A stretch of DNA of 64,000 nt from Scenedesmus sp. PABB004 (Eukaryota). The DNA lies in NCBI GenBank assembly GCA_014905635.1, contig JABVCE010000017.1:434001-498000 (forward strand), written 5' to 3'. Shown one piece after another: positions 16,280 to 64,000 of this stretch. Below the pieces are notes generated by a model. It saw only the letters and a list, made by a program, of their open reading frames with translations. It did not search any database and was not told the origin of the DNA. The translations under genes were made by a program, and so were the position numbers. Position 1 is the stretch's first letter, and the number at the start of each line of letters is the position of its first letter.

Positions 16280-16313
<34 letters not shown>

Positions 16314-16330
16314 GGCGCGAGGCGGCGTGA
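13542..16330 (+). CDS. MYND zinc-finger family protein, copy M1 (3 exons, appears intact)
   Basis: Starts MRPETAALAGWLGRC; introns 13927-14011 and 15137-15242; ends CCNNPRC...CGGC...FCSRACQVAAWRAHKPVC (MYND C/H spacing). Confidence 0.8.
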
Positions 16331-24739: not shown

Positions 24740-24933
24740 AGAGCTGGCAGGCACGCACACACAGCGAGCTGGCGGCGGTGCGCGGGTTGGCGTGTGCGAG
24801 CTGCGCCAAGTCGGCCGCGCCCGCGCGCTTCTGCAGCCACAGCTGCCAGGCGGCCGCGTGGCGCGCGCACAAGCCGGTGTGCCGCGCGCTGGCCGCAAGT
24901 GTGGCGGCGGCGGCGGCGCGCGAGGCGGGGTGA
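24740..24933 (+). pseudogene. Isolated 3' fragment of the MYND gene (M3a)
   Basis: HSELAAVRGLACASCAKSAAPARFCSHSCQAAAWRAHKPVC...stop, with no upstream exons, followed by the family spacer. Confidence 0.75.
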
Positions 24934-25305
24934 GGAGTGAAGGAGGGGCCAAGGCAGGGCGAGCTTGGTGAGGTGCCTTTGCAGGGTGGGGGCGGCCGCA
25001 GGCCCCGTGCACGTGGAGTGCTTGCTGTGAGCGACGGCTGTGCGCTTGTGTGAGTTGCAGCGTTGTGAGCGCCGCGCGCACGGCCGGGCGCACCCGCCGC
25101 CCGCGCTCGATTGTTGTCGCCGCGCGCGCTGTGCGGCCGTCGCCGCCCGCCCGGGCCCGCCTGGCGGGCCGCTGCGTGCCCCGGCGCCGCCTCCAGCCAG
25201 CCTCTCCAGTGCCAGCCTGACCCAGTCGCGCTGGCGCACCAGCCAGGCCGGCTGGGGGCGAGCGCCAGGGCCGCGCCGGCCGCCTGAACCGCGCCGGCCG
25301 CCCAG

Positions 25306-31700: not shown

Positions 31701-33088
31701 CGCAGCGGTGGCGGCGGCGGCGGCAGCAGGCGCCACGCCCGGGGCGCCAGCGGCGCCGCGGCCACCGCCGCCGCCGCCGCCGCTGCCGGGGCAGCCACCG
31801 GCAGCGCCGCGGCCACCGCCGCCGCCCCCGCCGCTGCCGGGGCAGCCACCAGCAGCGCCGCGGCCGCCGCCGCCGCCGCCGCCGCTACCAGGGCAGCCAG
31901 CGGCAGCGCCGCGGCCGCCGCCGCCGCCGCCACCGCTGCCAGGGCAGCCCGGGCCGCGGCCGCCGCCTCCGCCGCCGCCGCTGCCGGGTGAGTTGTGCTG
32001 CTGCTGGGGTGCGCTGCGGCTGCCTGGTGCTCGTGTCCGCTGCACTCACTCTCTGCCTGCCGCGCAGGCGCGCCGCGGCCGCCGCCGCCGCTTCCGGGCG
32101 CGCCGCGGCCGCCGCCGCCGCTTCCGGGCGCGCCGCGGCCGCCGCCGCCGCTTCCGGGCGCGCCGCGGCCGCCGCCGCCGCTTCCGGGCGCGCCGCGGCC
32201 GCCGCCGCCGCTTCCGGGCGCGCCGCGGCCGCCGCCGCCGCTTCCGGGCGCGCCGCGGCCGCCGCCGCCGCTGCCGGGCGCGCCGCGGCCGCCGCCGCCG
32301 CTTCCGGGCGGGCCGCGGCCGCCGCCGCCGCTCCCAGGTGGGGCCGGCGCCGCGCGGCCGGCGCGCCCGCCCGCCCCCTGCGCACCCCGCGACCGCCCGC
32401 GCCCGCCCGCGCCCGCCCGCGCGCAGGCGGCCCGCGCCCGCCGCCGCCGCCCGGCGGGCCGCGCCCGCCCGGCTACCGGCCGCCGTATGGCGCCGGCTTC
32501 GGGTCCATCCATGGCACGCCGCAGTACGGCGCCGCCGTCGCGGTGCCGGCGCCCAAGCGCAAGGCGCGGCGGCGCCGCCTGCGCGCGCCCGCCGCGCCGC
32601 GCGGCCCTCCCTCCCTCTCTCTCTCCTTTTCTCTCTTTTGCGTCTCATTGACTCCACACCACCACCAAACCCTAAAACCCTGCCCCGCCGCCCGTGCCCA
32701 AAACCCTGTTCAACCGAAACCCTTTGCCCCCCCCCCAAAACCCTCCCCCCGCGCCACAGACCAAGAGCCTCTTCTGGGACAAGATCCCCGATGCCCGGCT
32801 GCCGGGGTCGCTGTGGGAGGGCTTTGCCGCGGCCGACTGGCTCGACTTTGACGCGCTCGAGGAGGCGTTCCAGCAGGTGCGCACTGCGTTGCTTTGTGTG
32901 TCACTGTTGTTGTCATTTCGTGTTTTTAGGGTCAAGGACGTTGCGTCGCGCCGCGGCTGCACCCCGCCGCCGCCGACCCGCCCGCCGGCCGGCCGCGGCC
33001 CGTCCCTGCTCGCCCCGTGCCGCCGCGTGCAGGTCGTGCGCACCAAGGCGGCCGACCGGGGGCCGTCCGCGGCGCCCAAGCAGGCGCG

Positions 33089-33120
<32 letters not shown>

Positions 33121-36100
33121 CCGCCGCGCCCGCACCTCTGCGCCTCCTCACACGCCCGTCCCGCTCCCCTCACTCTCACTCTCACTCCCTCGCCCCGCCC
33201 AGGTCACGCTGCTCGACCTCAAGCGCTGCACCGCGATCGGCATCCGCATGGCGCGGCTCAAGGCGCGTGCCCTAAGCCCTAAACCGCGCCGCCGCCGCGC
33301 CGCCGCCGCCGCCGCCGCCCCCACGCGTCGCTTACGCCTCAACCCCCGCGCCGCTGCCGCGCGCGCCAGGTGCCGTGGCCCGAGGTCGGCGCAGCGATCC
33401 TCTCGCTCGACGGCGCCGCGCTCGGCAGCGCGGAGGACGTGGCGACGGTCGTGCAGTGCCTGCCCACGCCCGACGAGCGCACCACGCTCGAGGTGACAGC
33501 GCGCGCGCGCGCGCGCTGCGGGGCGCTGCTGCGGCCGCCGCCGGCCCGCGGCCTCTCTCCAACCACACTGGCGCGATGCCCACGGGAACCCTAACTAAGC
33601 CCTTCCGCGCCCCGCCCCGCCCCGCCGCACCCGCGCCGCCTGCGGCAGGCGTACGCCGCGTCGGGGCGGCCGCCCGAGGCGCTGAGCGAGGCGGAGCGGT
33701 TTGCCATGTCCCTCATGGCCGTCCCCGCGCCGCGCCGCGCCTGCGCGCGGTCGGGCAGCGCTTCGCCGCGGCCGAGCGGGCGGCCGAGGCGGCGGCCGTG
33801 TTCCAGGCGCGCGGCGCGGCGCGCATCGCAGCGCAGCGCAGCGCAGCGCAGCGCAGCGCAGCGCAGCGCAGCGCAGCGCAGCGCAGCGCAGCGCAGCGCA
33901 GCGCAGCGCAGCGCGCCTGCCCCGCGCCCACCCCCGCGCCTCCGCCCGCGCCGCCGCGCGCGCCGCCGCGCCGCCGCAGGCGCACATCGCCGCGTGCAAG
34001 GAGCTGCGCGGCAGCGGCACGCTGCGCGCGCTCCTCGCGGCGACGCTCGCGGCGGGCAACTTTCTGAACCACGGCTCCCGCCTCGGCAACGCGCCGGGGT
34101 TTAGGCTCAAGGGGCTCAACAAGCTCCACGACAGCCGCTCCCTGGACGGCAAGTCGACCATGCTCCAGGTGCGCGCGGGCGCCGCGGGGCTGCGTGGGGC
34201 TGCGTGGGGCTGCGTGTCGTGTGTGCGTGCGGCCGCGTGCGGGGAAGCTAGCGGCGCCTCGGGCACCCAACCGCCGCCCGCCGCGCGCCGCGCGCGCGCC
34301 GCGGCGCCCCAGGCGCTCGCGCGGCAGCTGCTCGAGCGCGGCGGCGACGGCGTGGCGGTGCTCGCGGAGGAGCTGCCGCACGTGGCGAGCCCCAAGCTCA
34401 AGATCAGCTGGCAGGAGGCGGCCGACATGCTCACGGCGGTGCGCCGCGCCGCCAGCCGGGTCGCGCCGCGCCGCCAGCCGCGCGTGCAGCGCGGGCGCGG
34501 CGCGCGCTGCGGGTCCGGGCGCCGCGCACGCACGCGCGAGCTGCGGCTGCCGACGCCGCCGACGTGCCGCGCGCCGCGGCGCAGGTTGAGGCGGCGGCGG
34601 CCTCGATCGCCGGCGAGCTGGAGCAGGCGGAGGACGGCGTGAAGCTGGTGCTGACGGTTCAGAAGCCCCAGCCGCCCGGCGGCGACGGCGGGCGCAGCCC
34701 CGCGCGGCCGGGCAGCGCCGGCGGCGGCCGCGGCCCGCCCGCGCGCGCGGGCGGCGGCGCCGGCGGCGCCGGCAGCCGCGCGGCGAGCCCCGCGCGCGGC
34801 GCCGGCAGCGACGACGGGTCCGCGGCGCCGCCCGCCGGCGCGCCCGCCGGCGCCGGCGACGCGGCCGGCGCCAGCGAGGCGGCCGCCGGCGGTGGCGAGG
34901 CCGGCGGTGAGGCGGGGGGCTGCGGCGCCGCGCCGCTGGTGGCCGTGCGCATCGTGGTGGACAACTTTCAGCCCGTCATGGCCAAGGTGGGTTTAGGGTT
35001 TTGAATCACCGTTTGAATCGCATTTGAACGCCGTTTGAATCGCTGCTGCCTGCACCGGGCGCCGCACGGCCTGCGCCGCGGCCCGCACGTTGCGGCTCCC
35101 GAGCCCTGCGCCGCGCTGCGTGCCGCGCCGCGCCGCCCCGCGCGCCGCGCCGCAGGTGCTGTCCAGCATCAAGGGCCGGCAGGCGGAGCTCGACCTGCTG
35201 CGCGACCGCGCCGCGTCGGCGTGGGAGGGGCTGCTGCGGCACTTTGGCGAGACGCGGCAGTCGTGCCCGGCCGACACCGAGTTCTGGGCAGACATCTCGG
35301 TGAGCCCTTGCGGTTCAAAGACGCTGGACCTGCGGTTCAAAACCCAAGGGTGCACGCCTTGGGTTTTGCGGCTTTGTTGACCTGTGGGTGTTTCGCCAAA
35401 CCCCGCCGCTGCGCCCCGCCGCTGCGCGTTGCCCGTCTGTCGCCGCAGCTCTTCGTCGAGCGCTTCAGCGCCGCGCAGAAGGCGGTCCTGCAGGAGGACC
35501 GCGACGCCGCGGAGCGCAAGCAGCGCCTCGCGCGCGCCGAGGCCAAGAAGGCCGCCGCCGAGGCCGCCAAGAAGGCGCGTGGGCGGGGGTTGGGGCAGCA
35601 TGCGGGCCCGCGCGCAGAGGCGGAGGCGGCAGAGGCAGGCTCACGCCCGCTGCCGCCGCCGCGCCGCCCACCATGCTCTGCAGGCCTCGGCGCTCGCGGC
35701 GAGCGGCAGCCGCAAGCGCCTCGCGGGGCTGTCGGACGCGGCGCTGCAGCAGCAGGGCAGCGCCGGCAGCGGCGGCGGCACGCCCGACCACTCGGGCGAC
35801 GGCAGCGCCGCGACCCCCGGCGGCCCGCTGCTCGGCAATGGCCTCATGGCCCTTGCGCAGCAGCGCGTCGCGAGCAGCGCCAGCCAGCCGCCCGCCGGCG
35901 CCGGCGCGGGCGCCGCCTCGCCCGTGACGCCGCCGGGGCCGCGCCGCCCCGGGCCTGCGTCGCCGGCGGCCGCCGCGCCGCCGGACGGGCGGCAGCAGCA
36001 GCAGCAGCAGCAGGGCTCGCCGGCGGGCTTTGGCAGCCCCGTCACGCCGGTCGGCCCGGGGCAGCAGCAGCAGCAGCAGCGCGCGCCGCCGCCGCCGCCG

Positions 36101-39791: not shown

Positions 39792-40411
39792 GACTGTGAG
39801 AGAGAGCGGGCACGCAAACACGGCGCTGGCGCGGGCTGGCGGGGCCTGGGTGGGCCGCGACGGCGCGGGGCGGAGCGGGCGCTGCTGTCGCCGCTCGCAT
39901 GCGCCCCCCGCTCGGCACCGCCGCGGGCCGCGCGCTGACGCGCAGGGCGGGCGCACCGCGGGGTCGTCGGGGCAGCAGGCGGCCGGGGTGTGGAGGCGCG
40001 GCGGCGGCGGGACGGCGGGCAGCTGGGCGGCCGGCGCGGTTCAGGCGGCCGGCGCGGCCCCGGCGCTCACGTCGGCTCGCCAGCCTGGCTGGTGCGGCAT
40101 GCGTTGGTCCGGGCTGGCAGTGGAGGGGCTGGCTGGAGGCGGCGCCGGGGCGCGCGGCGGCCCGCCAGGCGGGCCCGGGCGGGCGGCGTGCGCTGCACAG
40201 CGCGCGCGGCGGCGACCACCTTGGCGCGGGCGGCGGGGGCGCCTGGCCCGTGCGCGCGGGCCTCACAACGCTGCAGCTCACACAAGCGCACAGCCGTCAA
40301 CGCCGCCACAGGCAGCCGGCCGCGCGCACGGGGCCTGCGGCCGCCCCCGCCCTGCCAAGGCGCCTCAGCGACCTCGCCCCGCCTCGCCCCCCCCCTCCTC
40401 CCCCCCACTCC

Positions 40412-43175
40412 TCACCCCGCCTCGCGCGCCGCCGCCGCCGCACCCGCCGCCACGCCCGCGGCCAGCGCGCGGCACACCGGCTTGTGCGCGCGCCACGCGG
40501 CCGCCTGGCAGGCGCGGCTGCAGAAGAATGCGGGCGCGGCCGACTTGACGCAGCCCGCGCACGCGCACGCCGGGCCGCGCACCGCCGCCAGCTTGCTGTG
40601 CGCGCCTGCCAGCGCGACGCAGCGCGGGTTGTTGCAGCACGCGCGCAGCGGCAGCGCGGCGCAGACCGCGGCGCACAGCTCCTCCGCCTGCGCGGCCAGC
40701 GCGGGGCCGCGCTCCTGCAGCGTGCTGGCGCGGGCGGCTGCATTGGCCTGGGCGTCGTCGTCCAGCTGCACGGCCAGCTCTGCCGCCGCCGTGTGCAGCT
40801 GCTCCTGCTGCGCCAGCAGGCGCTCCAGCCCCGCGCGCGAGGGGTCCGCCGGCAGCGGCCCCAGCGCGCGCAGGCGCGCGCCCAGCAGCGCAGCTGCGTC
40901 GCCCAGGGCAGCCGGCATGGAGGGCGCCGATACCAGCGGCAGCAGCTCGCCAGACCCGCCGCCGGCAGCTGGCGCGCCCGCATCCGCCGCCGGATCCGCC
41001 GCCAGCGCCTCGCTGAGCAGCTGCGCCAGCACCGCCAGGCCGCGCGCCGCCAGCACCGCCCACAGCGCGGGCGGCTCGTATGCGAGCTGGCCGCCGGTGG
41101 CTGCGACGGCTGCCGGCTGCGCGTGCGCCACTGCGTCGCCGATGGCGCAGCCGGCGCGCACCGCAGCCAGGCAACCGCTCGCGAGGTCCCGCAGCTGCTG
41201 AAGCGGGTCGGCCTCGGCTGCTCCCCCCCCCCCCCACGCCAACCGTCATGCACTTGAGGGCCGTGAGCAGGCAGGCGAACACCTCGCGCTGCAGCAGCAG
41301 GCCCGCGCCGCCGCCGGTCGCCGTCAGCGCCGGCGCGTCGGCCAGGCTGGGGCTGAGCCACCCGATGGTGCCGCACACCACCTGCGCTGTGTCCAAAGCA
41401 GCCTGGGGGGCGACCCTGCCCGCCCAGCTCCTGGCGGACGCCTCCAGCAGCCGGCACAGGGTGGAGGGGTCCTGCCGCGCAAACGCCGCCAGCGCCGCGT
41501 CGGCTGCGTGGCGGCGGCAGCAGCGTTTGCAGCAGTGGGGGCAGCGTGAGCAAGCGCAGGCTGGGCCAGCGTGCAGCGCCAGCTGCCACAGCCAGCCAGC
41601 CGCCAGGGCGCCTCGCACCCGCCGGTCCGTTGCTCGACAGCAGAAGCGCGCCGCACCGATGCAGGGTGACCTCAGCAGTGGTTGCGTCAACCGGCTGCGC
41701 TTGCGCCCCGCCATGCCCCGCCGCGGCCTGGCCGCTGCCCGCGCTGCTGCCAGTGTCTGCCCCCAGCAGCGCGGCGACGGCGGGCCGGGCGAGCGGCAGG
41801 AACGCGCGCACCACTGCCGCCGCAGCCGCTGCGTCGCCCTCTGTGTCGCCGCCCTGGCGGCCGGGTCGCATGGCGCGCATGATGGTGCAGGTGCACAACA
41901 CGCCAGCAGCCAGCACACGGGGCGACGGCTGCAGCGCCACCAGCTCCAGCGCCGCCTCTGCCGCCGCGGCCGCCAGCTCCGCGGCGCCCGCCGCCGGCAG
42001 GCCGCCGGCGCCGCAGCTGGTCGGTGGCGACACCTCAAACAGCATCGTAACCGCGTGGATGCTCACCTCCACCAGCTGCTCATCGTCCCCACCCTGAGGC
42101 ACCGCCATGGCGTCCAGCCGCAGCGCCCGCAGCAGCGCGGCATGCGCCGCCGGCACGGCGGGCGCGCCAGGGCCGACGCCGCTGCTGCCGACGCCAGCCG
42201 GCCGGCCGTGCTGCGCCTTGTGCCGGTGCGCCGCTCGCAGGGCAAGGTTGGTCAGCAGCAGCTGCTGCATCGACGGGTCCGACAGCTGCGCCCGCTCCAC
42301 CTCGTCGCTCACACGGCCGTGCTGCCGCGCCAGCACCAGGTTATGGTGCTGGCCGCCAGGCTGTGGTGCGTGCCAAACGCAAAGCGCCGTCCACGAGCAT
42401 CTCGTGAGCGGCGCCACTGGCAGCCTCTGCACGCCAGGGGGCGGCGCGGCGCAGCACGGCGAGCGCCAGCCGCGCGACTGGCCGCGCCAGCGTCAGCAGC
42501 GGGCCCTCCAGCTGGCCCTGCAGCGACCAAGCGTCGCTGACAGCGCACGCCGCCCCCAAAAGCGCTAGCACAGTGAGACATCTCACGTTGTAGAGCTCGC
42601 CGCTGTCCTGCTGCCGCCGCCGCCGCCGCTGCTGCTGCGGGGCGCTTGAGGCCTCCAGCGCCGCGGCGAGGGCGGTGCACGCCGCAGCCAGCGGCAGGAG
42701 CAAGCCTGCGGGCGCGCCGCGGACGCGACCAAGTCAGGGATGGGCGAGGCAGCGGCTGGCGAGGACCCCCGCCGCCCAGCCGCCGCTCACCAGCGCGCTC
42801 CACGTCGGCCGCCAGCTCCGCGTCAGGCGCGCCAAGGGCCTTGCGGATTCGGAAGCTCAGCTTAAGCATACAGTACAGGGCATAGAGCGTGTGGGCAAAG
42901 CCCCTGCTGCCCGCCGCCTCCGCCCGCGGCGCCGGCGCCGCCAGCAGCGCCAGCGCGCGGGCCACGCCCTGCGCGACTCGCGCCTGCACGCCGGCGGCCA
43001 GCAGCGCGCTCAGGTCGGCGCAAGGCGAGCCCCTGGCCTCAGCTTCCTCAATGAGGCCGGCAAAATAGGCGTGGAGCGACTCTGCGGCGTCGACCTCCGC
43101 CGCGAGCGCGCCGATGCTGCCCGCGCGCGCGCAGCGGCCCAGCCAGCCCTCCAGGGCCGCGGTCTCGGGCCGCAT
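40412..43175 (-). CDS. MYND zinc-finger family protein, copy M4 (frameshift at a homopolymer near 41230, possibly an assembly error)
   Basis: MRPETAALEGWLGRC start, same exon structure, intact MYND finger; the frame break lies in a C run. Confidence 0.7.
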
Positions 43176-45114
43176 GCTGCGTGAGGTGCAGGCCGGCGGC
43201 GCGGGCGAGGGCTGACGGGGGATGCCCGAGCCGCGGCGGCGCGCGGGGCGGAGCGGAGCGGAGCGGGCGCTGCTGCTGCTCACGCGCAGCTGCCGCTCGG
43301 CACCGCCGCAGGGCCGCGCGCTGGCGGGCAGGGCGGGCGCACCGCGGGGTCGTCGGGGCAGCAGCCGGCCGGGGTGTGGAGGCGCGGCGGCGGGCAGCTG
43401 GGCGGCCGGCGCGGTTCAGGCGGCCGGCGCGGCCCTGGCGCTCGCGCCCGCCGGCCTGGCTGGTGCGGCGGCGTGGCTAGGTCGGGCTGGCAGTGGATGG
43501 GGCTGGCGGGAGGCGGCGCCGGGGCGCGCAGCGGCCCGCCAGGCGGGCCCGGGCGGGCGGCGCGCGCCGCACAGCGCGCGCGGCGGCGACCACCGAGCGC
43601 GGGCGCGCGCCTGGCCACGCGAAGGAGCGGATCAGTGCTCTGTTACGTACGTACCGGGTGCTCGCCACGCGGGCCGTCCAGCAGCGCCGCCGACCCGAGC
43701 GGGCGCGCCGCCGCCGGGCGGCCCTCGGGCGCAGCCGACAGTGCCGAGGGACCGTGGAGAAGTGCGCGGCTCCGTACGAAGCAACAGCAGCGCGCCGCGA
43801 TCGCTCGCCGCGCGTGCCCGCGCCGCGCGGCCAGCTGCGCGGCGGCCTCTGGCCCCAGAGGGACCAGGCGCGCGCCGGCAGCTCCGCTGGCGCGTTCTTG
43901 TTTTGCTTGTTGTGCATCTGTGCATCTTTGCGTGTGTCTGTGTGTGCGCGCGTCGTTGGTGTGCAGCAGCAGCGTCCAGCGACGACGACTCAACAGCAGC
44001 AGGCCACCGCGGTCGCTCATGACCGCGCGCCCCTCGCGCGCCTCGCCTCGCCCCCAGGCCATGCGGCCGGCAGGTCAGGTCGGCGCGCCTCGCCCCGTTT
44101 GTTGTTGGTCTTTGTTGTCCTTTCTCGCACTCAGCGCTGAACAGACGAACGCCCCATCGCCCCCTCGCATGCACACAGACACGGACGACATGGAACGCAG
44201 CGCCCACGCCCCACCCCCGCGCCCGCGCCCGCAGAGCTGTCCCCGCAGCCTCGCCGCCGCCACACACACACACACATATACATATCCGACACGGCGCGTC
44301 GGCCCGCCCGGGCGGCCGTGCTGACGACGCCGACGTGCGCGTCGGCGCGGCGCGGCCCCCCGACCGCTGCCCCGCGCGCGTGCTCCATCCATCCCGCGGC
44401 CCGAGGCGCGCCCGGCTCCGCCAGCCAAGAAGATCCCGACAAGAGCGCGACCGCACGCGCGGCGCGGCCCCCACAGGCGCGGCCGCAGGGGCGGGGCCGC
44501 GCCCGGCCGCCGTGAGACGCGTCCGGCGCCGCCGCGCGCGCACGCACGCGCGCGCGCGCCTCCCATGCGCTCACTCACTCGCTCGCACGGGGCGGGGCGG
44601 AGGGCACGCGCCCGCCGCCCCGCCCCGCGCCTCCGAATTCGCTCCCCCGCGCGCTCGCGTGCCGAGCCGCGTTCACCCCCTTTATAAAAAGAGTTGTGTG
44701 TGTGCTGTGCTGTCCGCCTAGTAGGTACATTCGGCGCGGGCCGGCGCGGCCGCGCGGCGCGCGAATCCGCGCGCCGGCGCGGCGCGCCGCGCCGCGGCGC
44801 TTGTTTGTTTGTTGGTGACCTGCCCAACCCAGTGCCGCCTCCCACGCCGCCGCCCGGGCATTGCATTCCGTTGGCGGCCGGCGCGCCGCGCGGCACGCGC
44901 CGCGCGGCGGCGCGCGGGGCGCGCGCGCGCGTTTTGGCGCGGCGCCCCGCCCCGGCGCGAGCCCTTGAATGCGGGCGACCCAAGTCCTGCGGCGGTGGCC
45001 GGAAACAAACAAACAGGCAACAGCAGCATTCGACGGTCGCGGCGATGAGTTCACGGCGGCGGTGGCGGCGTTAGGTTTGATTCGAGTCACAGGAGTTTGA
45101 ATTCAAAGTTGAAC

Positions 45115-45436
45115 TCAGTCCGAGACGGTCTCATACGTGACGGGGAAGAGCCCGACAGCGTTGGCGGGCGACAGGTACGTGAGCGTCGCGCTGAGCTGCT
45201 GCCCGGCGACCGCGTTCCACGTGCGGATGAGCGCCGTGCGCTTCGGCCCCGCCGGCAGCACGGGCAGCGCCCGGCCGGCGAACGCGCGCCAGTCGGCGAC
45301 GGCGTCGCCGTTGTACACGAACAGGGTGCTGCCGGCAAAGTTGGGGAAGGTCGTCGGCGCGCGGCGCGCGCACGTCCCGTTCTCTGCGCATTGGCGCACG
45401 GCGGGCGCGGCGCGGGTGCGGCGCGCGAGTGAGGGT

Positions 45437-45467
<31 letters not shown>

Positions 45468-47684
45468 GGCGGGGCAAGGGAGGGAGGGGGGAGGGGGCGG
45501 CTGCGCGCGGCGTGCGGGTGCGGCGCGGAGGGCGTGCGGCGCGCGCGGTGCGGCGCGGCGTGGCGCGCACTGGTGGACAGTCCCACGACCGCGACCGCCT
45601 TGCCGATCAGGGGGCCGATGTCAACCACGAGCCGCGTCTTCTGGCGCTCCACGCTGTCCTCGGGCGTCTCCCAGAAGTACCTTTGAGGGGGGGCGGCGCG
45701 GGGCGGTGTGGGCGGGGCGTGTGAGGTGTTGCGCCCGGGGCGGGTCGAGGAGGGGCGGCCAGGGAGGGTGGCGCAAGGGGGGCCCCGCAACCGCGGCGGG
45801 GGTGGCGCAAGGGGGGCCCCGCAACCGCCCGAGCCCCTGAGGCTCTGTGTCCCGACCCATCAGCCCCTTAAACCCCGCGCTTGAGCGCGCTCACTGGTAG
45901 TACAGCTTGAGCACCTCGCCCGCGACCGCGGCCACGCTCGGCCTGTTCAACCTCAACACCCTCAAACCCCTAAGCCCCTAAACCCCTTCAACCCTTGAAC
46001 CCCGGCGGGGCGCTCACTGGTAGTACAGCTTGAGCACCTCGCCCGCGACCGCGGCCGCGTCGATGCAGTCGACGGCCGGGTCGGCGCAGGGCGTGATGTC
46101 GGACGCGGGGCCGCTGCGCTTGATGCTGTAATACTTGGCGTAGTCGGCCGACAGCATCAGCCGGATGTGGCCGCAGCCCTGCGCGCGCGGGGAGGGTGGA
46201 GAGGGAGGGGTGGAGAGAGGGGTGGAGAGAGGGGTGGAGAGGGGGAGAGGGGTGGAGAGAGAGGGGCGGAGAGAGGGGTGGAGAGAGGGGTGGAGAAGAG
46301 TCGCGGCGGCGGGCGGGAGGGGGCGGGGGGCGGCCGGCGGGGGCGCGGCGGCGGGGGCAGGCGGCGTGCGCCGCGCGTGCGCGCACCTGGAACTCGCTCT
46401 TCACGAGGAGCTCCAGCCACTTGCCCTTGTCGGCCGGGCTGGGCGGCGCGCTGCGCGGCAGGTGGCGGCGGCGGCGGCGGCGTGCGCATGAGCCTGCGCC
46501 GCGCCGTGCGGCGCCCCGGCCGACCACGCCCCGCACCGGCGCCGCGCGCCGCGCCGCGCCCCGCGCGCGGCGCCCCGGCCGGCCGGCCGCGCCGCGCGCG
46601 CCGGCGCCGCGCGCGCGCGGCGCCGCGCCCCGCGGCGCGCCGCCACGCACGCGAGCGGCGCGATCGCGGGCTTGGGCGTCACGCCCGCCTCGGCCAGCGC
46701 GTTGAAGAGCGAGCGCAGGCGGGTGTCGTCCGTGTGGAAGTAGATGGGGCGGGTCGGCGTCGCGATGGTCGTCATAACAGAGTCAAAGAACGCCTTGACG
46801 TTGGCCGTGGTCACGGGGAGCTTCCTGCGGGGTTTAGGGTGTGGTCGGAGGTTGGTCGGAGGGTGGTTGACGGGGCGGGGCGGGGCGGCGCGAGGGAGCG
46901 CGCGGCGTGAGGGCGCGGGGGCGGCGCGAGATGGCGGCCCTGGAGCCGCCGCGCCCCAGCGCCGCCGCCTGGGCCTCGGCCTCGCCCGAGCGTTCGAGGC
47001 ATGCCACGCGGCGCCGCAACCCTGCGCCCCCAACCCTGACCCCTAAAACCTGCGTGCCAGCGGCGCTGAACCCCGAACCCCTGCGGCGCGCTCACTCAAG
47101 CTTGAGGTAGGCCATGGTGCCCGCGACTACCTCCGCCAGGTCGCCGCCGGGCGTGCCGAGCTCGGGCGACGTGCCGCGCGCGTCGACGCAGGAGAAGGAG
47201 TTGCGCACCGAGTTGCGCAGCCCGGGCGTGGGCTGCGCGGCGCGGCGGCGCGGGGACGTGGGCGGCGGGGTGGGCGGGGGCGGGGGCGGGGACGCGCGGC
47301 GGCGGCGCGGGGGCGCCGCGCGGCGCGCTCCCGGGCGCGCGGCGCACCTGCTCGCCGAAGTGGGTCTCCACCTGGGGCACCTGCGCGGCGGGCGCGGGGG
47401 CGCGGCGGCGCGGGTGCGTGTGCGGGGGCGCGGCGGCACTGCGCGGGTCAGCAGCAGCACCAGTCAGCAGCATGTGGGACACGCCCGACGGCCCGGCGTG
47501 CGGTGGGCGCCTCACTCACCGCGTAAAGCTTGTAAGTGCCATCTGCGTTGAACTCGGGCGTGGGCAGGTTGTTCTGGTTCCCCCCGACCGTGACCTTGCC
47601 CGTGAAGCTGCAGCCGTCGGCGTGGAGCAGCGCGCTGGCCGCCAGGAGCGCCAGCAGGGGCGCGGCGAGGTGGGCGCGGGCCAT
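45115..47684 (-). CDS. Secreted protein with Cys/His/Cys metal-site motifs, carbonic-anhydrase-like (beta/zeta/theta-type ligand pattern)
   Basis: Signal peptide MARAHLAAPLLALLAASALLHADG; spliced motifs FSCVDAR...GTPGGDLAE, IYFHTDD, GCGHIRLML; coherent exons to ...FPVTYETVSD*. The gene itself is clear; the function is inferred. Confidence 0.6.
46192..46300. repeat. Purine-rich (GGAGAGAGGGGT)-like intronic tandem repeat
   Basis: About 8 degenerate 12-bp units. Confidence 0.85.
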
Positions 47685-48524
47685 ATGATCGCTCGGTGGT
47701 TCCGGGTGGCTGGTGATGCTCCGGCGCAGCGACGGCTGCGGGCGGCGAGTGGCGCGGGGGCACGAGCAGCGTCACTGATAGATAGGGTGGCCGCAGGAGC
47801 ACGCGGGCGCAAAAAAAAAGGGTTGTGCCACGTTCGCATGCGCGTGGCGCTCGCATGCGGGTGCGGCGCGGTCGCCCAAGGCCTCCGGGCGGCTCCCGCG
47901 CCTGCGCCACGAGCAATTGGACCGCGGGCCGGCGCGCGCGCGGCCAGGCCGGCCGGCAGGCAGCACCAGACGCACCTGCTTTGACCGGGCTCGTGGGGGC
48001 TCCGACTGGCGCGCGCGAGGCCGGTGCAGGAGTGGAGTGCTCGCGGGGGGTCGCGGACCACGTGCGGAGCGCGTCAGCACCGGCAGAAGGCTCCGTCGGT
48101 GGCTGTAGGAGGCGGTGGTTGGGACAAGGCCGTAAAATAACAATGACCCGCGTCGTGCGAGCCCCGTTCGCGTGCGCGCGTCGCTCAACACTCACTGAGC
48201 AGGCGAGGAGTGACGTGCCGGGGCGCACGGGCTGAGCGGCCGGGGTCGGCGCCGCCGCGGGTGACGCCGAAAAAATGTCCTGCCGCGCCGCCCAGCCAGC
48301 CGCAGCCGGTCGGAGCGTGTCTGCGGCTCGGACACGGTCCGACGTCGGACCGTGTCTGCCAGGCCAGGGATCGAACCAAGCGGCGGCGGCGGCGGACGGA
48401 GCGGCGGCGCCGGTCACGAGGCGGCGCGTTGACGGTCGCTGCAAGTGCAGCCTGCAACCCGCAAGCACGCAGTGCCAAAGCAACGGTAAGCTGCCCCCCC
48501 CCCCCCCCCCCACACACACACGCC

Positions 48525-51252
48525 TCAACCCGCGTCGCGCGCCGCCGCCACGCCCGCGGCGAGCGCGCGGCACACCGGTTTGTGCGCGCGCCACGCGGCC
48601 GCCTGGCAGGCGCGGCTGCAGAAAAATGCGGGCGCGGCCGACTTGACGCACCCCCCGCACACGCACGCCGGCCCGCGCACCGCCGCCGGCTCGCTGTGGG
48701 CGCCGGCCAGCGCTGTGCAGCCCGGTTGTTGCTGCACGCGCGCAGCGGCAGCGCGGCGCACACCGCGCCGCACAGCTCCGGCGCCTGCACGGCCAGCACG
48801 GGGCCGCGCTCCTGCAGAATGCTGACGCAGGCGGCTGCGTCGGCCTGGACGTCGTCGTCCAGCTGCGCGGCCAGCTCCTCCGCCGCCGTGCACAGCTGGT
48901 CCTGCTGCGCCAGCAGGCGCTCCAGGACCGTGCGCGAGGGGTCTGCCGGCAGCGCGCCCAGCGCGCGCAGGCGCGGGCCCAGCGGCGCCGCTGTGTTGCT
49001 CAGGGCCGCCAGCACGGCGGCGGCAGCTGCCAGCAGCACCAGCTCACCAGGCTCGCCGCTGACAACTGGCGCGCCCGCACCGACCGCCGGCTGCGCCGCC
49101 AGCGCCTTGCCGAGCAGCTGCGCCAGCACCGCCAGGCCGCGCGCCGCCAGCACCGCCCACAGCGCGGGCGGCTCGTACGCGAGCTGGCCGCCCGCGGCCG
49201 CCGCGGCTGCCGGCTGCGCATGCGCCACAGCGTCACCGATGGCGCAGCCAGCGCGCACCGCCGCCAGGCACCCGCGGCTGCTCAACCCTGTTGGGTGCGG
49301 CTGCCGCCGGCCCCACACCGACTGCCACGCACTTGAGGGCCGTGAGCAGGCAGGCAAACACCTCACGCTGCAGCCGCGGGCCCGCGCCGCCGCCGGTCGC
49401 CGTCAGTGGCGGCGCGGCTGCCAGGCTGGTGCCGAGCCGCCTGATTGCGTCGCACAGCGCGTGGGCTGTGCTCAGGGCGGCGCTGCCCGCCCAGGTCCTG
49501 GCCGATGCCTCCAGCAGCCGGCACAGGGTGGAGGGGTCCTGCCGCGCAAACGCCGCCACGACCGCGTCGGCTGCGGCGGCGACGGGAGCAGTGGCGGCGG
49601 CGGCGGCGGCAGCGGCGTGAGCAAGCGCAGACACGCTGAGCCAGCGCGGCAGCTGTCAAAGCGATATGTTGTCAATGTGCCGCACACCCGCAGGTCCGCC
49701 GCTCCACAACAGCAGGTAGCCGCAGCGCAGCAGGGCGTGCTTAGCAGTTGCTGCGTTGACCGGCTGCGCTTGGGCCCCGCCGTGCCCCGCCGCCGCCGGC
49801 CCGTTGCCCGTGCTGCTGCCAGCGTCTGCCCCCAGCAGCTCGGCGACGGCGGGCCGGGCGAGCGGCAGGAACGCGCGCACCACTGCCGCCACCGCCGCGT
49901 CGCCCTCTGTGTCACCACCCTGGCGGCCGGGTCGCACGGCGCGCAGGGCGACGCTGGCGCACGCCGTGCCTGCAGCCAGCAGGCGCGGCGCCGGCTGCAG
50001 CGCCACCAGCCCCAGCGCCGCCTCTGCCGCTGCGACCGCCAGCTCCGCGGCGCCCGCCGCCGGCAGGCCGCCGCCGGCGCCGCAGCTGGCCGGGGGTGAC
50101 ACATCAAACAGCGCCGTAACCGCGCTGATGCTGTACTCCACCAGCTCCTCATTGTCCAGACCTTGTGGCACTGCGATGGCGTCCAGCGCCAGCACGCGCA
50201 GCAGCGCGGCGTGCGCCGCCGGCACGGCGGGCGCGCCAGTGCCGGCGCCGCTGCTGCCGCCACCTGCGCTGGTCGGCCGACCGCGCTGCGCCTCGTGGAC
50301 GTGCGCCGCGCGCAGGGCGAGGTCGGCCAGCAGCAGCTGCTGCACCGCGGGGTCTGCCAGCAGCGCACGCTCCGCCTCATCGCTCACGCAGCCATGCTGC
50401 CGGGCTGCCAACAGGCTCTGAGCCGTCCACCAGGCTGTCGCGTGAGCCGAAACCAGCGCAGTCTGCATGGAGCGGGCCGCGGACAGCGCGCGCTGCACCA
50501 GGCTTGCGCCTGCAGGGCTGCTGCCGGCAGCCGCCGCACGCCAGGCACCGGCGCAGCGCAGCACCGCGAGCGCCAGGCGCGCGACCGGCTGCGCCAGCGG
50601 CAGCAGCGGGCCCTCCAGCTGGCCCTCCGACGGCCAGGCGCTGTGGGTAGCACGGGCCGCCAGCAGTGGCGCTGCCGCAACCAGGCACGCAGGGAGCGGA
50701 GGAGCGCAGGTGCCCTCCTGCTGCGGGGCCTCCAGTGCCGCGGCGACGCCGGCGCACGCCACGACCAGCGGCGGAAGCATGCCTGCGGGCGGGCGGAGGC
50801 GGCGGCCCGGTCAGGGACGGGCGAGGCAGCGGCAGGCGCGGACCGCCGTCGGCCTGCCGCCGCTCACCCGCGCGCTCCAGCTCGGCCGCCAGCTCCGCCT
50901 CGGGCGCGCCAAAGACCTTGCGGATGCCAAAGCTCGCCTGCAGCATGTCGCACAGAGCATGAACCGTGCGGGCACAGCCCCCGCTGCCCGCCGCCGCCGC
51001 CCGCGTCGCCGGCGCCGCCAGCAGCGCCAGCGCGCACGCCACGGCCTGCGCGAGCCGCGCCTGCACGCCGGCGGCCAGCAGCGCGGCCAGGTCGGCGCAG
51101 GGCGAGCCCCTGGCCTTTGCGCTGTCAAGAATGTCGGCGAAATAGTCCATCAGTGACTCCGCGGCCGCGCCTTCCGCCGCGAGCGCGTCGACGCTGCTCG
51201 CGCGCGCGCAGCGGCCCAGCCAGCCCGCCAGGGCCGCCGTCTCGGGCCGCAT
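48525..51252 (-). pseudogene. MYND family copy M5, disrupted
   Basis: Full 3-exon layout, but with a 14-nt deletion near 49275 (between GCGGG microhomologies) and the same 1-nt frameshift at NN|R (near 48722) as M3b. Confidence 0.7.
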
Positions 51253-51901
51253 GCTGCCTGGGCCACAGACTTGCGGCGCCGGCGAGGGTTGGCGAGGGCT
51301 GGCGGGGCCTGGGTGGGCCAGGGCGGCGCGGGGCTGGGAACGGGCGCTGCTGTCGGCGCTCGCGCGCGGCCGCCGCTCGGCACCGCCGCAGGGCCGCGCG
51401 CTGGCGGGCAGGGCGGGCGCGCCGCGGGGTCGTCGGGGCGGCAGCCGGCCGGGGTGTGGAGACGCGGCGGCGGCGGGGCGGCGGGCAGCTGGGCGGCCGG
51501 CGCGGTTCAGGCGGCCCGCGCGGTTCAGGCGGCCCGCGCGGCCCTCGCGCTCGCGCCGCCCGCCGCCCTGGCTGGTGCGGCGGCGTGGCTGGGTCGGGGT
51601 GGCACTGGAGGGGCTGGCTGGAGGCGGCGCCGGGGCGCGCAGCGGCCCCGCCAGGCGGGCCCGGGCGGGCGGGGCGCGCCGCACAGCGCGCGCAGCGGCG
51701 TCGGCAGAGCGGTGCCCGCCGCCAGCTGATGCGCGCGCAGTCCGCGCAAACTCACAGGCCTGCACGCCCAAACCGGTGACCCTCGGCCAGCGAGCAGGCG
51801 CACACACCGCAAACCGCCGCCCGGCCCCGCGACGCGGCATGGGCCCCTAGAGCGGCGGTCACTCCTGGGGGCCATCTCGCCTCACTCCGCCTCACTCCGC
51901 C

Positions 51902-57446: not shown

Positions 57447-60400
57447 ATGCTCAACCAGGGCCTCGACCCGCAGGGCCTGCGCTATGCCGCGGCCGGCACG
57501 CAGTACCAGCACGCCCAACAGAGCTTCCAGGCCCTGGGTGCGGCGCCGCCGCGGCGCGCGGCGCCCCGCACCGGCGACCGGCAGCGGCGGCGCTGCTGTT
57601 GGCGCGCGCGCGGGCAGCGCGGGCGCACGGCGCGCGGCCGGGGGCGCCGCTGACGCGCCGGCCGCCGCCGCCGCCGCCGCCACCGCAGGCGGCCTGCAGC
57701 AGGGTCTGCAGGGCCTCGGCGGCGCCGGCAGGTGCGCGCGCGCTGCGGCGGGGCGCCGTCCCCGTGGGCGCGCGCGCGCCCACGCGCCCACGCGCCCGCG
57801 CGCCGCCTCCGCCGCCGCCGCCGCGCCGTCCCCTACCGCAGGATGGGCCTTGCAGGCTTCCCAAACACCTCGACGGCGCCGCAGGCGGGCCAGTTCCACG
57901 GCGGCGGCCTCGGCGCGGCCGGCGCGGCGGGGCTGGCGGCGCAGCAGGGCGCGTTGCGATTCATGGGCCCCGGCGTGCCGCTCGGCGGCGGGCAGCTCGC
58001 GGGGCAGTTTCCCGGCGTCGGCCTGAGCGCGGCCGCGCAGCGGCAGGGCCTGGGGCAGGGCCTCGGGCAGGGCATCGGGCAGGCGCAGGGCCTCGGGCTC
58101 GGGCTCGGCGGCGCGGTGCGCGGCGGCGCGACGCCGCAGCAGGCGGCGGCGGCCAGCCTGCTGATGCAGCGGCAGCAGCAGCAGCAGCAGCAGCAGTTTG
58201 GGGCGGCGCAGCAGTTTGCGGGCGGGCTCGGCGGCCTCGCCGGCAACCCGCTGCAGCAGCTGAACGCCGCGCAGCAGCGGCTCGCGCTGCAGCAGCAGCA
58301 GCAGCAGCAGCAGGCCGCCGCGGCGGCGGCGGCGGCGCCGCAGCAGCAGCAGAACGACCTGCTCGCCCTGCTCGCGAGCAGCAAGGGCGGCGCCGGCGGG
58401 CACGGCTTTGGCCAGGCCATGGGCGGCCTTGGCGGCCTCGGCGGCGGGGGCCCCGGCGGCATGGCGGGGCCGCACGGGCTCTTCGGCGGCCGCCCCGGCG
58501 GCTTTGCCGGCGCCGCGGCGGCGGGCCTCGGCGGCGGCGGCGGCGGCGGCTTTGGCCAGCCGCTGGGCGGCGTCGACGGGCTCGGCGGGCTCGGCGGCGC
58601 CGGCCAGCAGCAGCAGGGCGGCGGCGGCGGCGGCCCAGGGTTCAGCCAGGACGAGTTCCCGGCCCTCGGCGCGGCGGCGCAGGCCGCCGCGGCGGCGCGC
58701 GGCGCGGCGGCGGCGCAGCAGGCGGCCGCCGCGGCCGCCGCGCAGGCGCAGGCCGCGGCCGGCGGCGGGCCGCGCTCGGGCGGAGACTACTCGGCTGCCG
58801 CGATGGCGCTGCGCAAGGCCGCGGGCGTCGGGCAGCAGGTGAGGGCGCGCGCGTGCGGGGCAGAAGGGGGGAGCAGGCCGTCACGCCTCGCCAGCACTCG
58901 CGCCGCGCCGCCCGCGCGCCAACGCCCGCCGCGACCGCCGCGGCGGTGCTGCGCAGGAGTTTTCGATCCAGAACGACAGCGACTTCCCAGCCCTCGGCGG
59001 CGGCCCGCCGCAGGGCGGCGGCGGCGGCGACGACAAGGGCGGCGCGGTGCGCCGCCGCACGCGCGCCCGCGCGGCGCCCCCGCCCCCGCCCCCGCCCCCC
59101 CCCCCCCCCCCCCCCCCCGGCGCGCGGCGCGCACGGCCGCCGCGACACGCGCCGGGGGTCCCTGACGCCGCGCTGCCCGCGCCGCGCCCGTTCAGGACAA
59201 GGACCGGCCCGGCGGCGGCGCCGACGGCGGCGGCGGCGCGGGCGGCGGCCTGCTCCCCGGCGGCGGCGGCATGGCGGGCGGCGCGGCCGCGGGCGCCGAC
59301 AGGTGCGCGCCGCACCACCGCCGCGCCGCGCCGCGCCGCGCCGCCACGCCCCTCCCCCTGTCTCGCGCCGCTGGCTTGCGCCCTGCTGCCGCTGCACCCC
59401 AGCTCCCGCTCAACCCTGCTCCGCCCGCCCCTAAAACCTAAACCCTAAACCCTGAAACCGCCCCAGGTACGGCCTGCTGGGGCTGCTGCACGTCATCCGC
59501 ATGACAGAGCCCGACCTCACGATGCTCGCGCTCGGCACCGACCTCACCGGCCTCGGACTCAACCTCAACGCGCCCGACTCGCTCTACAAGGCGCGCCTTG
59601 TGCGGCACTGCGCGCCGGCTGCTGTTTTGACCGTTGGTTTGACTGTTGCTTGAGCGCTTTCAAGCGTCGCCCGTGATTTGTGCACGGCTGCGCGGACGCC
59701 GCGCCCGCGCCGCCCGGGGGCGGGCCTCGCACGCGCGCGCGCCGCCGCCGCGCCCGCCCGTACCCCGCCAGGTGCTCGTGTCGCCGCTCGCCGACGCGCC
59801 GGTGCGGCCCGACCTCGACTTTGAGGTCCCCGCGTGCTACAAGCACAGCCCGCCGCGCCTGCAGCCGGGGTACCTCGCCAAGTTCAAGGAGGAGACGCTC
59901 TTCTACATCTTCTACTCCATGCCCCAGGTGCGTTAATGACGTGTTAATGACACGTTATTTGACTGTCACTCCTGACTGCTTTGACTTTTGATCTGTGTGG
60001 AGTGATCCAGGCCGACGGGACCGCGACCCGCCCCCGCCCGCGCGCCCGCGCTCGCGCTCGCAGGACGAGGCGCAGCTGATCGCGGCCGACGAGCTCTGCG
60101 CGCGCGGGTGGTGGTGGCACAAGCGCTTCCGCTGCTGGTTCATCCACGCGCCCAACAGCCCCGTCGTCAAGAGCGCCGCCGCGCGCAGCGAGCGCGGGAC
60201 GTACCTGTTCTTCGACACCTCCATCTGGGACGTCGTGCAGGTGGGCGGCCGCTACTCTAGTTTAGGGTTTAGGGTTTAAACCTAAACCCGCCTCCCGCCC
60301 GCGGGCCGCGCGAGCGGCGGCCGTTCAGGGTTTGTCACCAGGGTCCCTGCAAGGGCTTTGTGGGCGGTGCCGCTGCCGATCGCCCGGCCTCCTCGCGAGC

Positions 60401-60681: not shown

Positions 60682-61145
60682 CACGACGCGGCGGCACGGG
60701 CGGAGGGAGGGGGATCGGGCGGGGCGGGGCTATGGCGTGCGTTGCGCTCCTCTCCTGATCCCTGCCGAGGGCAGGCCTGGCGCACGCAGCAGCTGAGCCT
60801 TGGGGGCGGGCGGGCGGGCGGGCGGCGCGCGTTGACTACGTTCGGGAGCGGCGGCGGGCAGGGGGCAGAGGGCGGGGGGCGGGCGGGGGGGGGGCGGCGG
60901 ACGGGGGCGCGCGGGCAACAACTGAGCCTCCCGCCGCCGTGCCCGCGGTTTGGCGGCCGCGCCCCGCGTCAGCCGCCGGCAGCCCCGTGTCCCCTCCCCC
61001 TGGCCACCGTCGCTCCCGCCCACCCGCAGTCAAGAGCAGCCGCCGGGCGCGAGCGGCGAGCAGCTGCTGCTCCGCCCCGCGCCGCCGCGCGCCGCCGCGG
61101 CCCCTCCAGCCCTCGCCAGCGCCTCCGGCCTGCGGCCCAGGCAAC

Positions 61146-63960
61146 ATGCGGCCCGAGACGGCAGCGCTGGCGGGCTGGCTGGGCCGCTGCGCGCGCGCGA
61201 GCAGCGTCGGCGCGCTCGCGGCGGAGAGCGCGGCCGCGGAGTCACTGATGGACTTTTTCGCCGGCCTGGTTGAAGACGCGAGGGCCAGGGGCTCGCCCTG
61301 CGCCGACCTGCGCGCGCTGCTGGCCGCGGGCGTGCAGGCGCGGCTGGCGCAGGCCGTGGCCCGCGCGCTGGGGCTGCTGTCGGCGCCGGCGACGCGGGCG
61401 GCGGCGGCGGGCAGCGGGGGCTGTGCCCGCACGATTCAAACTCTGTGCGACATGCTGGATGGAAGCTTTCGCACCCGCAAGGGCCTGGGCGCGCCCGACG
61501 CGGAGCTGGCGGCCGAGCTGGAGCGCGCGGGTGAGCGGCGGCGGCAGGCGGGCGGCGGTCCGCGCCTGCAGCTGCTGCGCCCGTCCCTGACCGGGCCGCC
61601 GCCGCTGCGCACCCGCAGGCATGCTGCCGCCGCTGGCAGCGGCGTGCACCGCTCACGCCGCGACGCTGGAGGCCTCGCAGCAGCGCCAGCGGCAGGCCAG
61701 CGGCGCGCAGTCTTGACCTGGAGTGCCTCACAGCAGCAGCACTGCTGGTGGCGGCACGCACAGCGCACATCACGTGGCCGGCACAGGCCCAGCTGGAGGG
61801 CCCGCTGCTGGCGCTGGCGCAGCACGACGTGCGGCTGGCGCTCGCGGCGCTGCGCCGCGCCGGGGCCTGGCGCGCACAGGCCGGTGGCGGCTTGATACCG
61901 TCGGACTTGGTGGAGGACGTGCTGTCGTTATCCCGCGTCACAGCACAGGGGACGGCTCAGAGCGTGCTGCTGGCGCGGCGGTATCGCCGCGTGAGCGGAA
62001 GGGCGGAGCGGGCGCTGCTGGCGGACCCCGCGGTGCAGCAGCTGCTGGCCAACCTCGCCCTGCACGCGGCGCACCTGCGCAAGGCGCAGCGCAGCCGGCC
62101 GGCTGGCGTTGGCAGCGGCAGCGGCGCCGGCCCTGGCGCGTCCGCCGTGCCGGCGGCGCACGTCGCGCTGCTGCGCGCGCTGGCGCTGGACGCCGCCGCG
62201 GTGCCTCAGGGTGGGGACGATGAGCAGCTGGTGGAGGTGAGCATCCACGCGGTTACGACGCTGTTTCAGGTGTCGCCACCGACCAGCTGCGGAGCCGGCA
62301 TCGCCGGCGGCAGCGGCTCCGGCGGCGGCAGCAGCGTGCCGCAGGCGGGCGGCGCGGAGCTGGCGGCCGCGGCGGCCGAGGTGGCGCTGGAGCTGGTGGC
62401 ACTGCAGCCGACGCCCCGAGCGCTGGCTGCCGGCGCGGTGTGCACCAGCGACGTCCTGCTCTGCCTCCGGCTTGCCCCGTTTGCTGGGGCGCGGGACCAG
62501 GCGGCTGCGGCAGCGGCGGTCGTGCGCGCATTCCTGCCGCTCGCCCGGCCCACCGCCGCCGTGCTGCTGGGGGCAGACGCTGGCAGCAGCACGGGCCGCG
62601 GCCAGGCGGCGGCGGGGCGGGGTGGGGTGCACGTGCACCCGGTCGACGCAGCCACTGCTCAGCTCACCCTGCAGCGCAGTGGCGTGCTCCTGTTGAGCAA
62701 CGGACCGGCGGGTGCGAGGCATGCTGGCGGCGGCTGGCCTTGGCAGCTGGCGCTGCACGCTGGCCCAGCCTGCGCTTGCTCACGCTGCCCCCGCCGCTGC
62801 AAACGCTCCTGCCACCGCCGCGCAGCCGACACGGCGCTGGCGGCGTTCGCACGGCAGGACCCCTCCACCCTGTGCCGGCTGCTGGAGGCGTCCGCCAGGA
62901 GCTTGGCGGGCAGGGAGATGGCGCAGGTCGCTCTGGACACAGCACACGCACTGCGCGGCTCCATTGGGCGGCTCGGGCCCAGCCTAGCAGCTGCACCGGC
63001 GCTGACGGCGACCGGCGGCGGCGCGGGCCTGCTGCTGCAGCGCGAGGTGTTTGCCTGCCTGCTCACGGCCCTCAAGTGCGTGGCGGTCGGCGTGGGGCCG
63101 GCGGCAGCCGCCGCCCCTGACCGCGATGACCAGCTGCGGGGCCTGGCGAGCGGGTGCCTGGCAGCGGTGCGTGCCGGCTGCGCCGTCGGCGACGCGTGGC
63201 GCGCGCGCAGCCGGAAGCTGTGGCAGCTGCTGGCGGCCAGCTCGCGTACGAGCCGCCCGCGCTGTGGGCGGTGCTGGCGGCGCGCAGCTTGACGGTGCTG
63301 GGGCAGGTGCTCAGCGTGGCGCTGGCGGCGCCACAGCTGGCAGCCGGCGCGAACATCGCCGCCAGTGCCGGCACGCCAGGCGAGCTGACGCCGATGGTGA
63401 CTGTGGTCTCCGTGCTGGCAGCCCTGGGCAACGCGGCGGCGCTGCTGGGCGAGCGCCTGCGAGCGCTGGGGCCGCTGCCGGCAGACCCCTCGCGCACGAG
63501 TCTGGAGCGTCTGCTGGCGCAGCAGGAGCTGCTGTGCACGGCGGCGGAGGAGCTGACTGCGCAGCTGGGCGACGACGCCCAGGCCGACGCAACCGCCTGC
63601 GTCAGCACGCTGCAGGAGCGCGGCCCCGCGCTGGCCGCGCAGGCGGAGGAGCTGTGCGCCGCGGTGTGCGCCGCGCTGCCGTTGCGCGCGTGCTGCAACA
63701 ACCCGCGCTGCGTCGCGCTGGCAGGCGCGCACAGCGAGCTGGCGGCGGTGCGCGGCCCGGCGTGCGCGTGCGCGGGCTGCGTCAAGTCGGCCGCGCCCGC
63801 GTTCTTCTGCAGCCGCGCCTGCCAGGCGGCCGCGTGGCGCGCGCACAAGCCGGTGTGCCGCGCGCTGGCCGCGGGCGTGGCGGCGGCGGCGGCGGCGGCG
63901 GCGCGCGAGGCGGAGTGGAGTGAGGCGGGAGGGGAGGGGCGGGGCAGCGAGGAGGGGTGA
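61146..63960 (+). CDS. MYND zinc-finger family protein, copy M7 (frame breaks near 61715 and 63196; possible pseudogene)
   Basis: MRPETAALAGWLGRC start, conserved introns, intact MYND finger; the family spacer resumes at 63961. Confidence 0.6.
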
Positions 63961-64000
63961 GCTCAGTGAGGTGCCTTGGCAGGGCGGGGCGGCCGCAGCT

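Follow-up and report, generated by a model that had tools for sequence, protein, structure and literature searches.

A duplicated splice donor and telomere-like filler in a Scenedesmus gene: a probable young insertion at an old intron

The window of interest, a 64,000 nt stretch of the Scenedesmus sp. PABB004 genome (contig JABVCE010000017.1, positions 434,001–498,000), contains a gene in which the end of one exon is found twice, with telomere-like DNA between the two copies. Did this duplication create a new exon, a new intron, or neither? The original prediction was that the second copy may be a newborn 48 nt cassette exon, caught during intron/exon gain through break repair. Our analysis favours another reading, to which we give a probability of roughly 0.68: a young insertion of 123 bp, placed at the donor of an intron that is itself old, which duplicated this donor without making a working exon. 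The source genome (40 Mb, 80 contigs) has TTTAGGG arrays at contig ends, which gives its telomere unit; the GC content of the window is 74–84%.

Host gene and anatomy of the duplication

The duplication lies in a minus-strand gene of eight exons (Table 1). The encoded protein belongs to a family of ~370 aa proteins with invariant CxDxR, HxD and GCGH motifs and is, judging from a signal-peptide-like start, probably secreted. Its closest named homologues are hypothetical proteins of Tetradesmus obliquus (48–50%). Nothing credible was found in Pfam with the exon pieces and the homologues, nothing in a PDB sequence search, and no usable match in the ESM Atlas; a homologue search with exon 4 likewise found none. 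The closest fold is that of CDCA1, a zeta-class carbonic anhydrase from Thalassiosira weissflogii: Foldseek matches the family model to CDCA1 with a probability of 0.99 (E 0.007), and the model of homologue P0008 (pLDDT 92.7) aligns with CDCA1 at Z 11.0 (next row 3.8) and rmsd 4.0, with 193 aligned. The host family resembles CDCA1 in its invariant Cys, His and Cys motifs, which may form a Cys2His metal site as in the CDCA fold, but it is 13–16% identical to CDCA1, has no Pfam match, and differs in its length and in its signal-peptide-like start. Zeta-class carbonic anhydrase is listed for diatoms in Table 1 of PMC7215798. Going by the structural models, the host gene, its paralogue (L002, on contig C46) and homologues P0006–P0037 are possibly an unannotated carbonic-anhydrase family of green algae and other eukaryotes.

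The paralogue, which is 56% identical to the host protein in an alignment of the manual model, bears on the age of the affected intron. A phase-2 intron at the exon 6/7 boundary is common to both genes; intron 6 is thus old, and the duplicated element is the donor of a pre-existing intron. For this reason, the proposed intron gain is not borne out. The exon 6 end is also present in the paralogue, and fragments P0001–P0003 and P0005 stop at the exon 6 end boundary. Against the paralogue, the form of the host protein without the 48 nt segment aligns gaplessly, while the form that includes the segment needs a 16-residue gap.

Three further observations concern the gene's relatives and neighbours. 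The paralogue carries an intron (969–1102) without counterpart in the window gene, with G-type and then C-type telomere-like motifs inside; this is a candidate for intron gain or loss tied to the same filler-writing process. The codon position of intron 2 differs between the two genes (window 47233–47347, paralogue 491–622); close to where the paralogue has its intron, the window exon contains a short internal repeat. Finally, one gene family with many tandem and dispersed paralogues occupies window positions ~13300–26300, 39900–43500, 48500–51900 and 61100–64000, at a spacing of ~3.3 kb; its members have a Cys-rich C-terminal end, which we take to be MYND-finger-like.

The exon end does, as predicted, occur twice. 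Read along the minus strand, the order is exon end, GTGAGCGC, a 73 nt G/T-rich filler, exon end again, GTGAGCGC again, and the normal intron. The direct repeat is 50 nt long and 98% identical (45887–45936 and 46010–46059; spacing 123 nt). Within it lies an exact 47 nt core, each copy of which consists of the final 39 nt of exon 6 and the 8 nt donor start GTGAGCGC. All 47 core positions are identical, including 13 third codon positions and eight intron bases, and the left edge of copy 2 shows one substitution and one extra base. The two donors, D1 and D2, are identical and score 6.55 bits each.

Table 1. Features of the host gene, the duplicated exon end and other telomere-like tracts (window positions)
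Feature	Position	Strand	Description
Host gene	45115..47684	-	8 exons, 370 aa; hand-built model, open frame
Host-gene exons 1-4	47684-47520, 47380-47348, 47232-47096, 46824-46651	-	manual model
Host-gene exons 5-8	46450-46387, 46178-46018, 45680-45571, 45383-45115	-	manual model
Exon 6	46018..46178	-	ends in duplicated coding stretch
Repeat copy 1	46010..46056	-	last 39 nt of exon 6 and first 8 nt of intron; donor D1 GT 46017-46016
Filler	45937..46009	-	73 nt, G-rich, degenerate telomere-like, one perfect TTTAGGG; G-strand runs away from copy 1
Candidate acceptor AG (AACAG)	45943..45944	-	G/T-rich context
Candidate cassette (pseudo-exon)	45895..45942	-	48 nt, phase 2-2, 16 residues
Repeat copy 2	45887..45933	-	to 45936 with one mismatch; donor D2 GT 45894-45893
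Original intron 6	45681..45894	-	214 nt; telomere-like G-rich start, CTCAC branch-like motif, C-rich tract, AAG acceptor
Exon 7	45571..45680	-	manual gene model
Degenerate telomere-like tracts in window	21360-21381, 23202, 32667-32743, 34987-35002, 46825-47095, 59412-59453		

In a repeat survey of 464 kb (40 evenly spaced 10 kb stretches of the source genome, plus the window), seven complex direct repeats of at least 25 nt were found; only the 45887/46010 pair contains telomere-like filler. Among 99 G-strand telomere-like tracts (31 from an unbiased 664 kb and the rest from pattern-selected loci), the filler at 45937–46009 alone has a flanking repeat of more than 9 nt (0 of the 98 others; control maximum 12 nt in 300 pairings), and no flanking repeat of more than 11 nt was found at eight further loci. 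A long duplication is, given these 98 tracts without one, not the usual signature of telomere-like tracts in this genome. The possibility that duplication plus filler is a genome-wide habit was rejected, since at 40 pattern-selected loci no flanking repeat of at least 16 nt passed the filter.

Other duplications were noted in passing. A perfect 29 nt tandem duplication (spacing 34 nt) lies inside original intron 6, at window 45766–45828; it may also be recent, and the match of the related contig described below ends at 45816. A predicted donor context also recurs nearby at two other loci: in L053 near 3523–3856 (333 nt apart), which looks like duplication of a whole exon-intron unit, and on the minus strand of L127 near 4817 (62 nt).

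The filler and a single-copy allele

The description of the separator as degenerate and telomere-like held up well. Against a perfect TTTAGGG array, the filler scores 37, a value reached by 0 of 2000 shuffles (shuffle maximum 27). Of the 54 alignment columns, 42 are identical (78%), 5 mismatched and 7 gapped, and one unit is perfect. This amounts to ~1.5 differences per unit when gaps are counted and fewer than one when they are not, which is borderline for the low-mismatch definition of a short interstitial telomeric sequence (ITS). The telomere array is also the best single match to the filler: the neighbouring intron scores 27, and the best other intron tract 35. The strand of the filler is that expected if the left 3' end was extended.

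A DNA search of the source genome, which skips simple repeats, returned the filler itself and no further copy; likewise, a 20 nt piece of the filler has no place in the source genome but its own when up to two mismatches are allowed. Two origins were considered and rejected: (i) a repeated or mobile element, or an introner, no further genome copy having turned up in these searches, and (ii) descent by divergence from the start of the neighbouring intron, since scores at least as high are reached by 5 of 681 predicted introns and by 19 of 51 intron starts that are telomere-like.

The runs listed for the locus comprise no RNA set and a single small-share DNA metagenome, from fresh water (run X1, kept as contigs; aligned at 82% likeness), and in this metagenome a single-copy form of the site was found. 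The 290 nt contig 3 of this run joins exon 6 (46184–46010) to the original intron (45886–45816), skipping exactly 123 nt. The 246 aligned letters contain 8 differences—six on the exon 6 side and two on the intron side, the short side measuring 71 letters—and since ~3% of letters differ, the contig is from another strain. Neighbouring X1 contigs match UTR and intergenic DNA at ~97%. Four listed exon 6 differences (window 46018–46178), of which three change an amino acid (K/R, K/R, P/T), may be errors, coming as they do from a single low-depth contig. The contig looks like an empty orthologous site, as is expected for a young insertion. Comparison with relatives had been suggested as a check on the original prediction; it revealed the single-copy form in this ~97% relative, and no 16-residue insert in any of 32 database homologues or the paralogue (0/33).

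The single-copy allele is represented by one contig of depth 4.5 in one run, and its joint is ambiguous: a graph assembler can collapse repeats of 47 nt, and an identical joint would result from a deletion between the two copies. The 47 ambiguous letters do, for their part, exceed the usual assembly word length. No X1 contig covers the filler, and X1 coverage is patchy elsewhere too. Because the flanks are identical yet the filler is 78% telomere-like, the simplest reading is that the filler was probably degenerate when it was written.

The candidate cassette and competition between two donors

The second copy of the exon end has the predicted outline: it is bounded by AG and GT, is 48 nt long, phase-symmetric and stop-free, and would add 16 residues. 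Splicing at this site can, hypothetically, take several courses. These include (i) D1 joined to the old acceptor, giving a 337 nt intron (among the longest 2% of predicted introns) and the normal 370 aa protein, (ii) D2 joined to the old acceptor, giving a 214 nt intron, retention of the first 75 nt, a stop directly after the exon end and a 245 aa product, and (iii) D1 joined to the new AG through a 75 nt intron, with the cassette included.

Whether the third course is open depends on the candidate acceptor, which was compared with a reference set of predicted introns. The reference contains 681 of 1134 ab initio predicted introns, kept for a strong donor, flanking exons of at least 50 nt on both sides and a length below 1200 nt; the two introns at the studied site were left out. 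The candidate acceptor has 0 C in positions -30 to -4, where the median over the 681 introns is 15; none of the 681 has one C or fewer, one has five or fewer, and all 35 introns of up to 80 nt have at least seven. Its position-matrix score is -9.1 bits; all 681 predicted acceptors (on which the matrix was also trained) score higher, and so do 99.5% of 934 decoy YAGs. A YNAC branch-like motif, found in 542 of the 681 introns, is absent before the candidate acceptor. On these sequence features, the acceptor looks unusable. Two other in-frame AGs in the filler, 45994 and 45970, were rejected: their introns would measure 24 and 48 nt, and the score of the second is -9.3.

In our estimation, the 48 nt segment is unlikely to be a newborn cassette exon that enters the transcript at any meaningful frequency. 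The logic would be that D2, being nearer, pairs with the old acceptor and leaves D1 only the new AG, so that the frame is rescued with 16 additional residues; if D2 dominates, inclusion is indeed among the few outcomes that keep the frame. The length, phase, open frame and strong donor of the segment all agree with this, and a 75 nt upstream intron falls inside the span of predicted lengths (23 of the 681 introns do not exceed it). Our self-trained gene finder also calls the cassette, which counts against the pseudo-exon reading. This is expected of a perfect coding copy and a gene finder that has no acceptor-context model: trained on 664 kb, it uses only the last three bases as its acceptor signal (it was also seeded with two hand-built genes, so that recovery of those two is not independent). 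The frame argument is weak, since an in-frame, stop-free YAG arises by chance in 18.5% of 5000 shuffled fillers for introns of at least 60 nt, and in 26.5% for introns of at least 45 nt. Furthermore, the segment would repeat most of one 18-residue helix in the model of homologue P0008, a helix that is single in all 33 relatives. With the acceptor an outlier by C content, matrix score and branch-like motif, the newborn exon is weakly supported at best, and inclusion through the new AG would be at most a minor product.

The sequence points to a likely consequence of another kind: two identical donors in competition, one leading to the normal protein and the other to an immediate stop. The 337 nt length of the D1 intron may favour the use of D2. 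In mammalian systems the nearer donor is known to be preferred, and some loss of normal host product is, by analogy, plausible. A literature search found nothing on duplicated-donor competition or G/C triplets. With a paralogue on another contig, the effect of the allele probably lies between neutral and mildly harmful.

Origin of the insertion and comparison with known systems

We consider an origin by break repair probable. A staggered double-strand break, with nicks ~50 nt apart, would have opened across the end of exon 6. The left 3' end would then have been extended with 73 nt of G-strand telomere-like DNA, after which fill-in of the overhangs and joining of the ends would leave a 47–50 nt target-site duplication. 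Break, extension and fill-in would together explain the duplication, the filler strand and the empty site. Of the original idea of intron/exon gain through break repair, the second half is supported: the insertion looks young and has a break-repair signature (single-copy allele, target-site duplication, and filler without a second copy).

As to what wrote the filler, we lean slightly towards a telomerase-type, error-prone or stuttering polymerase over a polymerase-theta-type patchwork. In the latter case, which we hold to be possible though less likely, the same structure would have been filled by microhomology-mediated end joining, polymerase-theta-type template switching or slippage, with nearby or ectopic G-rich intron tracts as patchwork template and telomerase uninvolved. 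The single perfect unit in the filler fits such a patchwork, as do a 22-column match to the neighbouring intron start, the comparable scores of other intron tracts, and the great rarity of perfect internal arrays (two non-terminal among seven matches); the telomere array is nevertheless the best single match, no donor copy was found, and the neighbouring intron is no better a template than unrelated tracts. A patchwork would, in any case, alter only the enzyme step of the preferred explanation. An older duplication is a good deal less probable: here, the filler would have decayed while gene conversion, or selection acting on the two copies, maintained their identity, and the related strain would have lost the duplication by recombination between the repeats. 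Deletion between direct repeats does mimic an empty site, and the left edge of copy 2 carries its two changes, but 47 of 47 identical positions stand against 12 filler/telomere differences in 54 columns, and the paralogue and homologues are single-copy. Least probable of all is an assembly or consensus artefact, despite the sole independent sequence seen, the X1 contig, being without the duplication. A false duplication would not bring along 73 nt of new sequence without another copy, the filler is written in the genome's own intron style, and the X1 contig, with ~3% of its letters different, is another strain.

The proposed break-repair insertion sits in a genome with many degenerate telomere-like tracts. 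GTGAG is followed within 20 nt by GGGTTTAGGG at 56 places in the source genome and by its complement at 15 (reversed controls: 0); on visual inspection, several of these 56 belong to the acceptor side of genes on the opposite strand and are no true donors. Telomere-like motifs occur in 35 of the 681 predicted introns (~5%) and are polarised: 24 of 31 G-type matches lie in the first fifth of the intron, and 42 of 47 C-type matches in the last two fifths. Among the 31 tracts of the unbiased 664 kb, 30 have at most one consecutive perfect unit, and a pattern of three perfect units followed by a non-T, which undercounts, gave seven matches, two of them away from contig ends. Close G-then-C telomeric junctions were found at 17 loci (three or four near contig ends), against three C-then-G junctions. 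Such head-to-head junctions resemble telomere fusions (window 60258–60290; L135, L136, L138), and the three junction loci that were checked all lie in predicted introns.

Since the filler is 78% telomere-like, has identical flanks and is missing from a relative that is 97% identical, the locus suggests that the degenerate telomere-like tracts of this genome's introns were degenerate from the start and did not arise by decay of telomerase products. Intron sequence would in that case be shaped by a repair route of the telomerase type. In Coccomyxa, short telomeric tracts have reportedly been described in large numbers close to exons. In the literature searched (main texts, mostly open; supplements may differ), no description was found of polarised degenerate telomeric tracts in algal introns, or of a telomerase-type repair route shaping introns in green algae; the parts consulted of PMC3446292 (the Coccomyxa genome) contain no statement on intronic telomeric tracts, and those of PMC9498494 and bioRxiv 10.1101/2021.01.29.428817 no account of polarised telomeric tracts in algal introns. 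A bolder and improbable version is that an error-prone activity of the telomerase type repairs the alga's breaks, writes DNA that is degenerate from the outset and could keep remodelling introns, and that the 48 nt segment is already partly spliced in, an exon at birth. Were this true, 3' extension of both broken ends would always yield products that are G-rich and then C-rich, whatever the orientation of the gene; these would fit the G-rich start and C-rich end of introns and could supply the splice signals of new introns, and 45937–46009 would be a dated, one-sided repair event. Taken singly, the locus is a natural experiment on two questions: how an alga with compact introns decides between identical donors separated by 123 nt, and whether splicing can recruit an AG that lacks the usual context. 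Beyond that, its value is that of a clock.

Three known systems invite comparison. Tandem exon duplication and the exonization of cryptic pseudo-exons are known routes to exons, and the present locus resembles them in its frame-preserving partial exon copy and strong donor; unlike whole-exon duplications, which carry an acceptor along, the copy here is without its own. Intron gain by tandem genomic duplication and by double-strand-break repair is listed in PMC3296678, and a passage of PMC8226300 discusses such gain for Chlamydomonas. The likeness here lies in a duplication with filler between direct repeats within a gene, and in new potential splice-site pairs. In contrast to intron gain, the intron position pre-exists, the copied element is a donor instead of a proto-splice site, there is no evident usable new acceptor, and any new intron is hypothetical.

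The locus best fits, and would work like, a known kind of event: telomeric insertion during break repair. Table 1 of PMC2246262 gives telomeric insertions with direct target duplication at 4.6% of 130 rodent and 16% of 25 primate loci; in the horse, target duplication is reported at 4.5% of 66 loci in a section of PMC7215372, which proposes staggered breaks and describes young telomeric insertions as better conserved. In common with short ITSs at mammalian breaks, the Scenedesmus locus shows a probable one-step insertion of a tract like the genome's own telomere repeat, an empty orthologous site (one contig, depth 4.5) and a direct target duplication of the end-joining type. It differs in that its tract is degenerate though young, its duplication covers coding sequence and a donor, its host is a green alga, and the tracts of this genome are polarised within introns.
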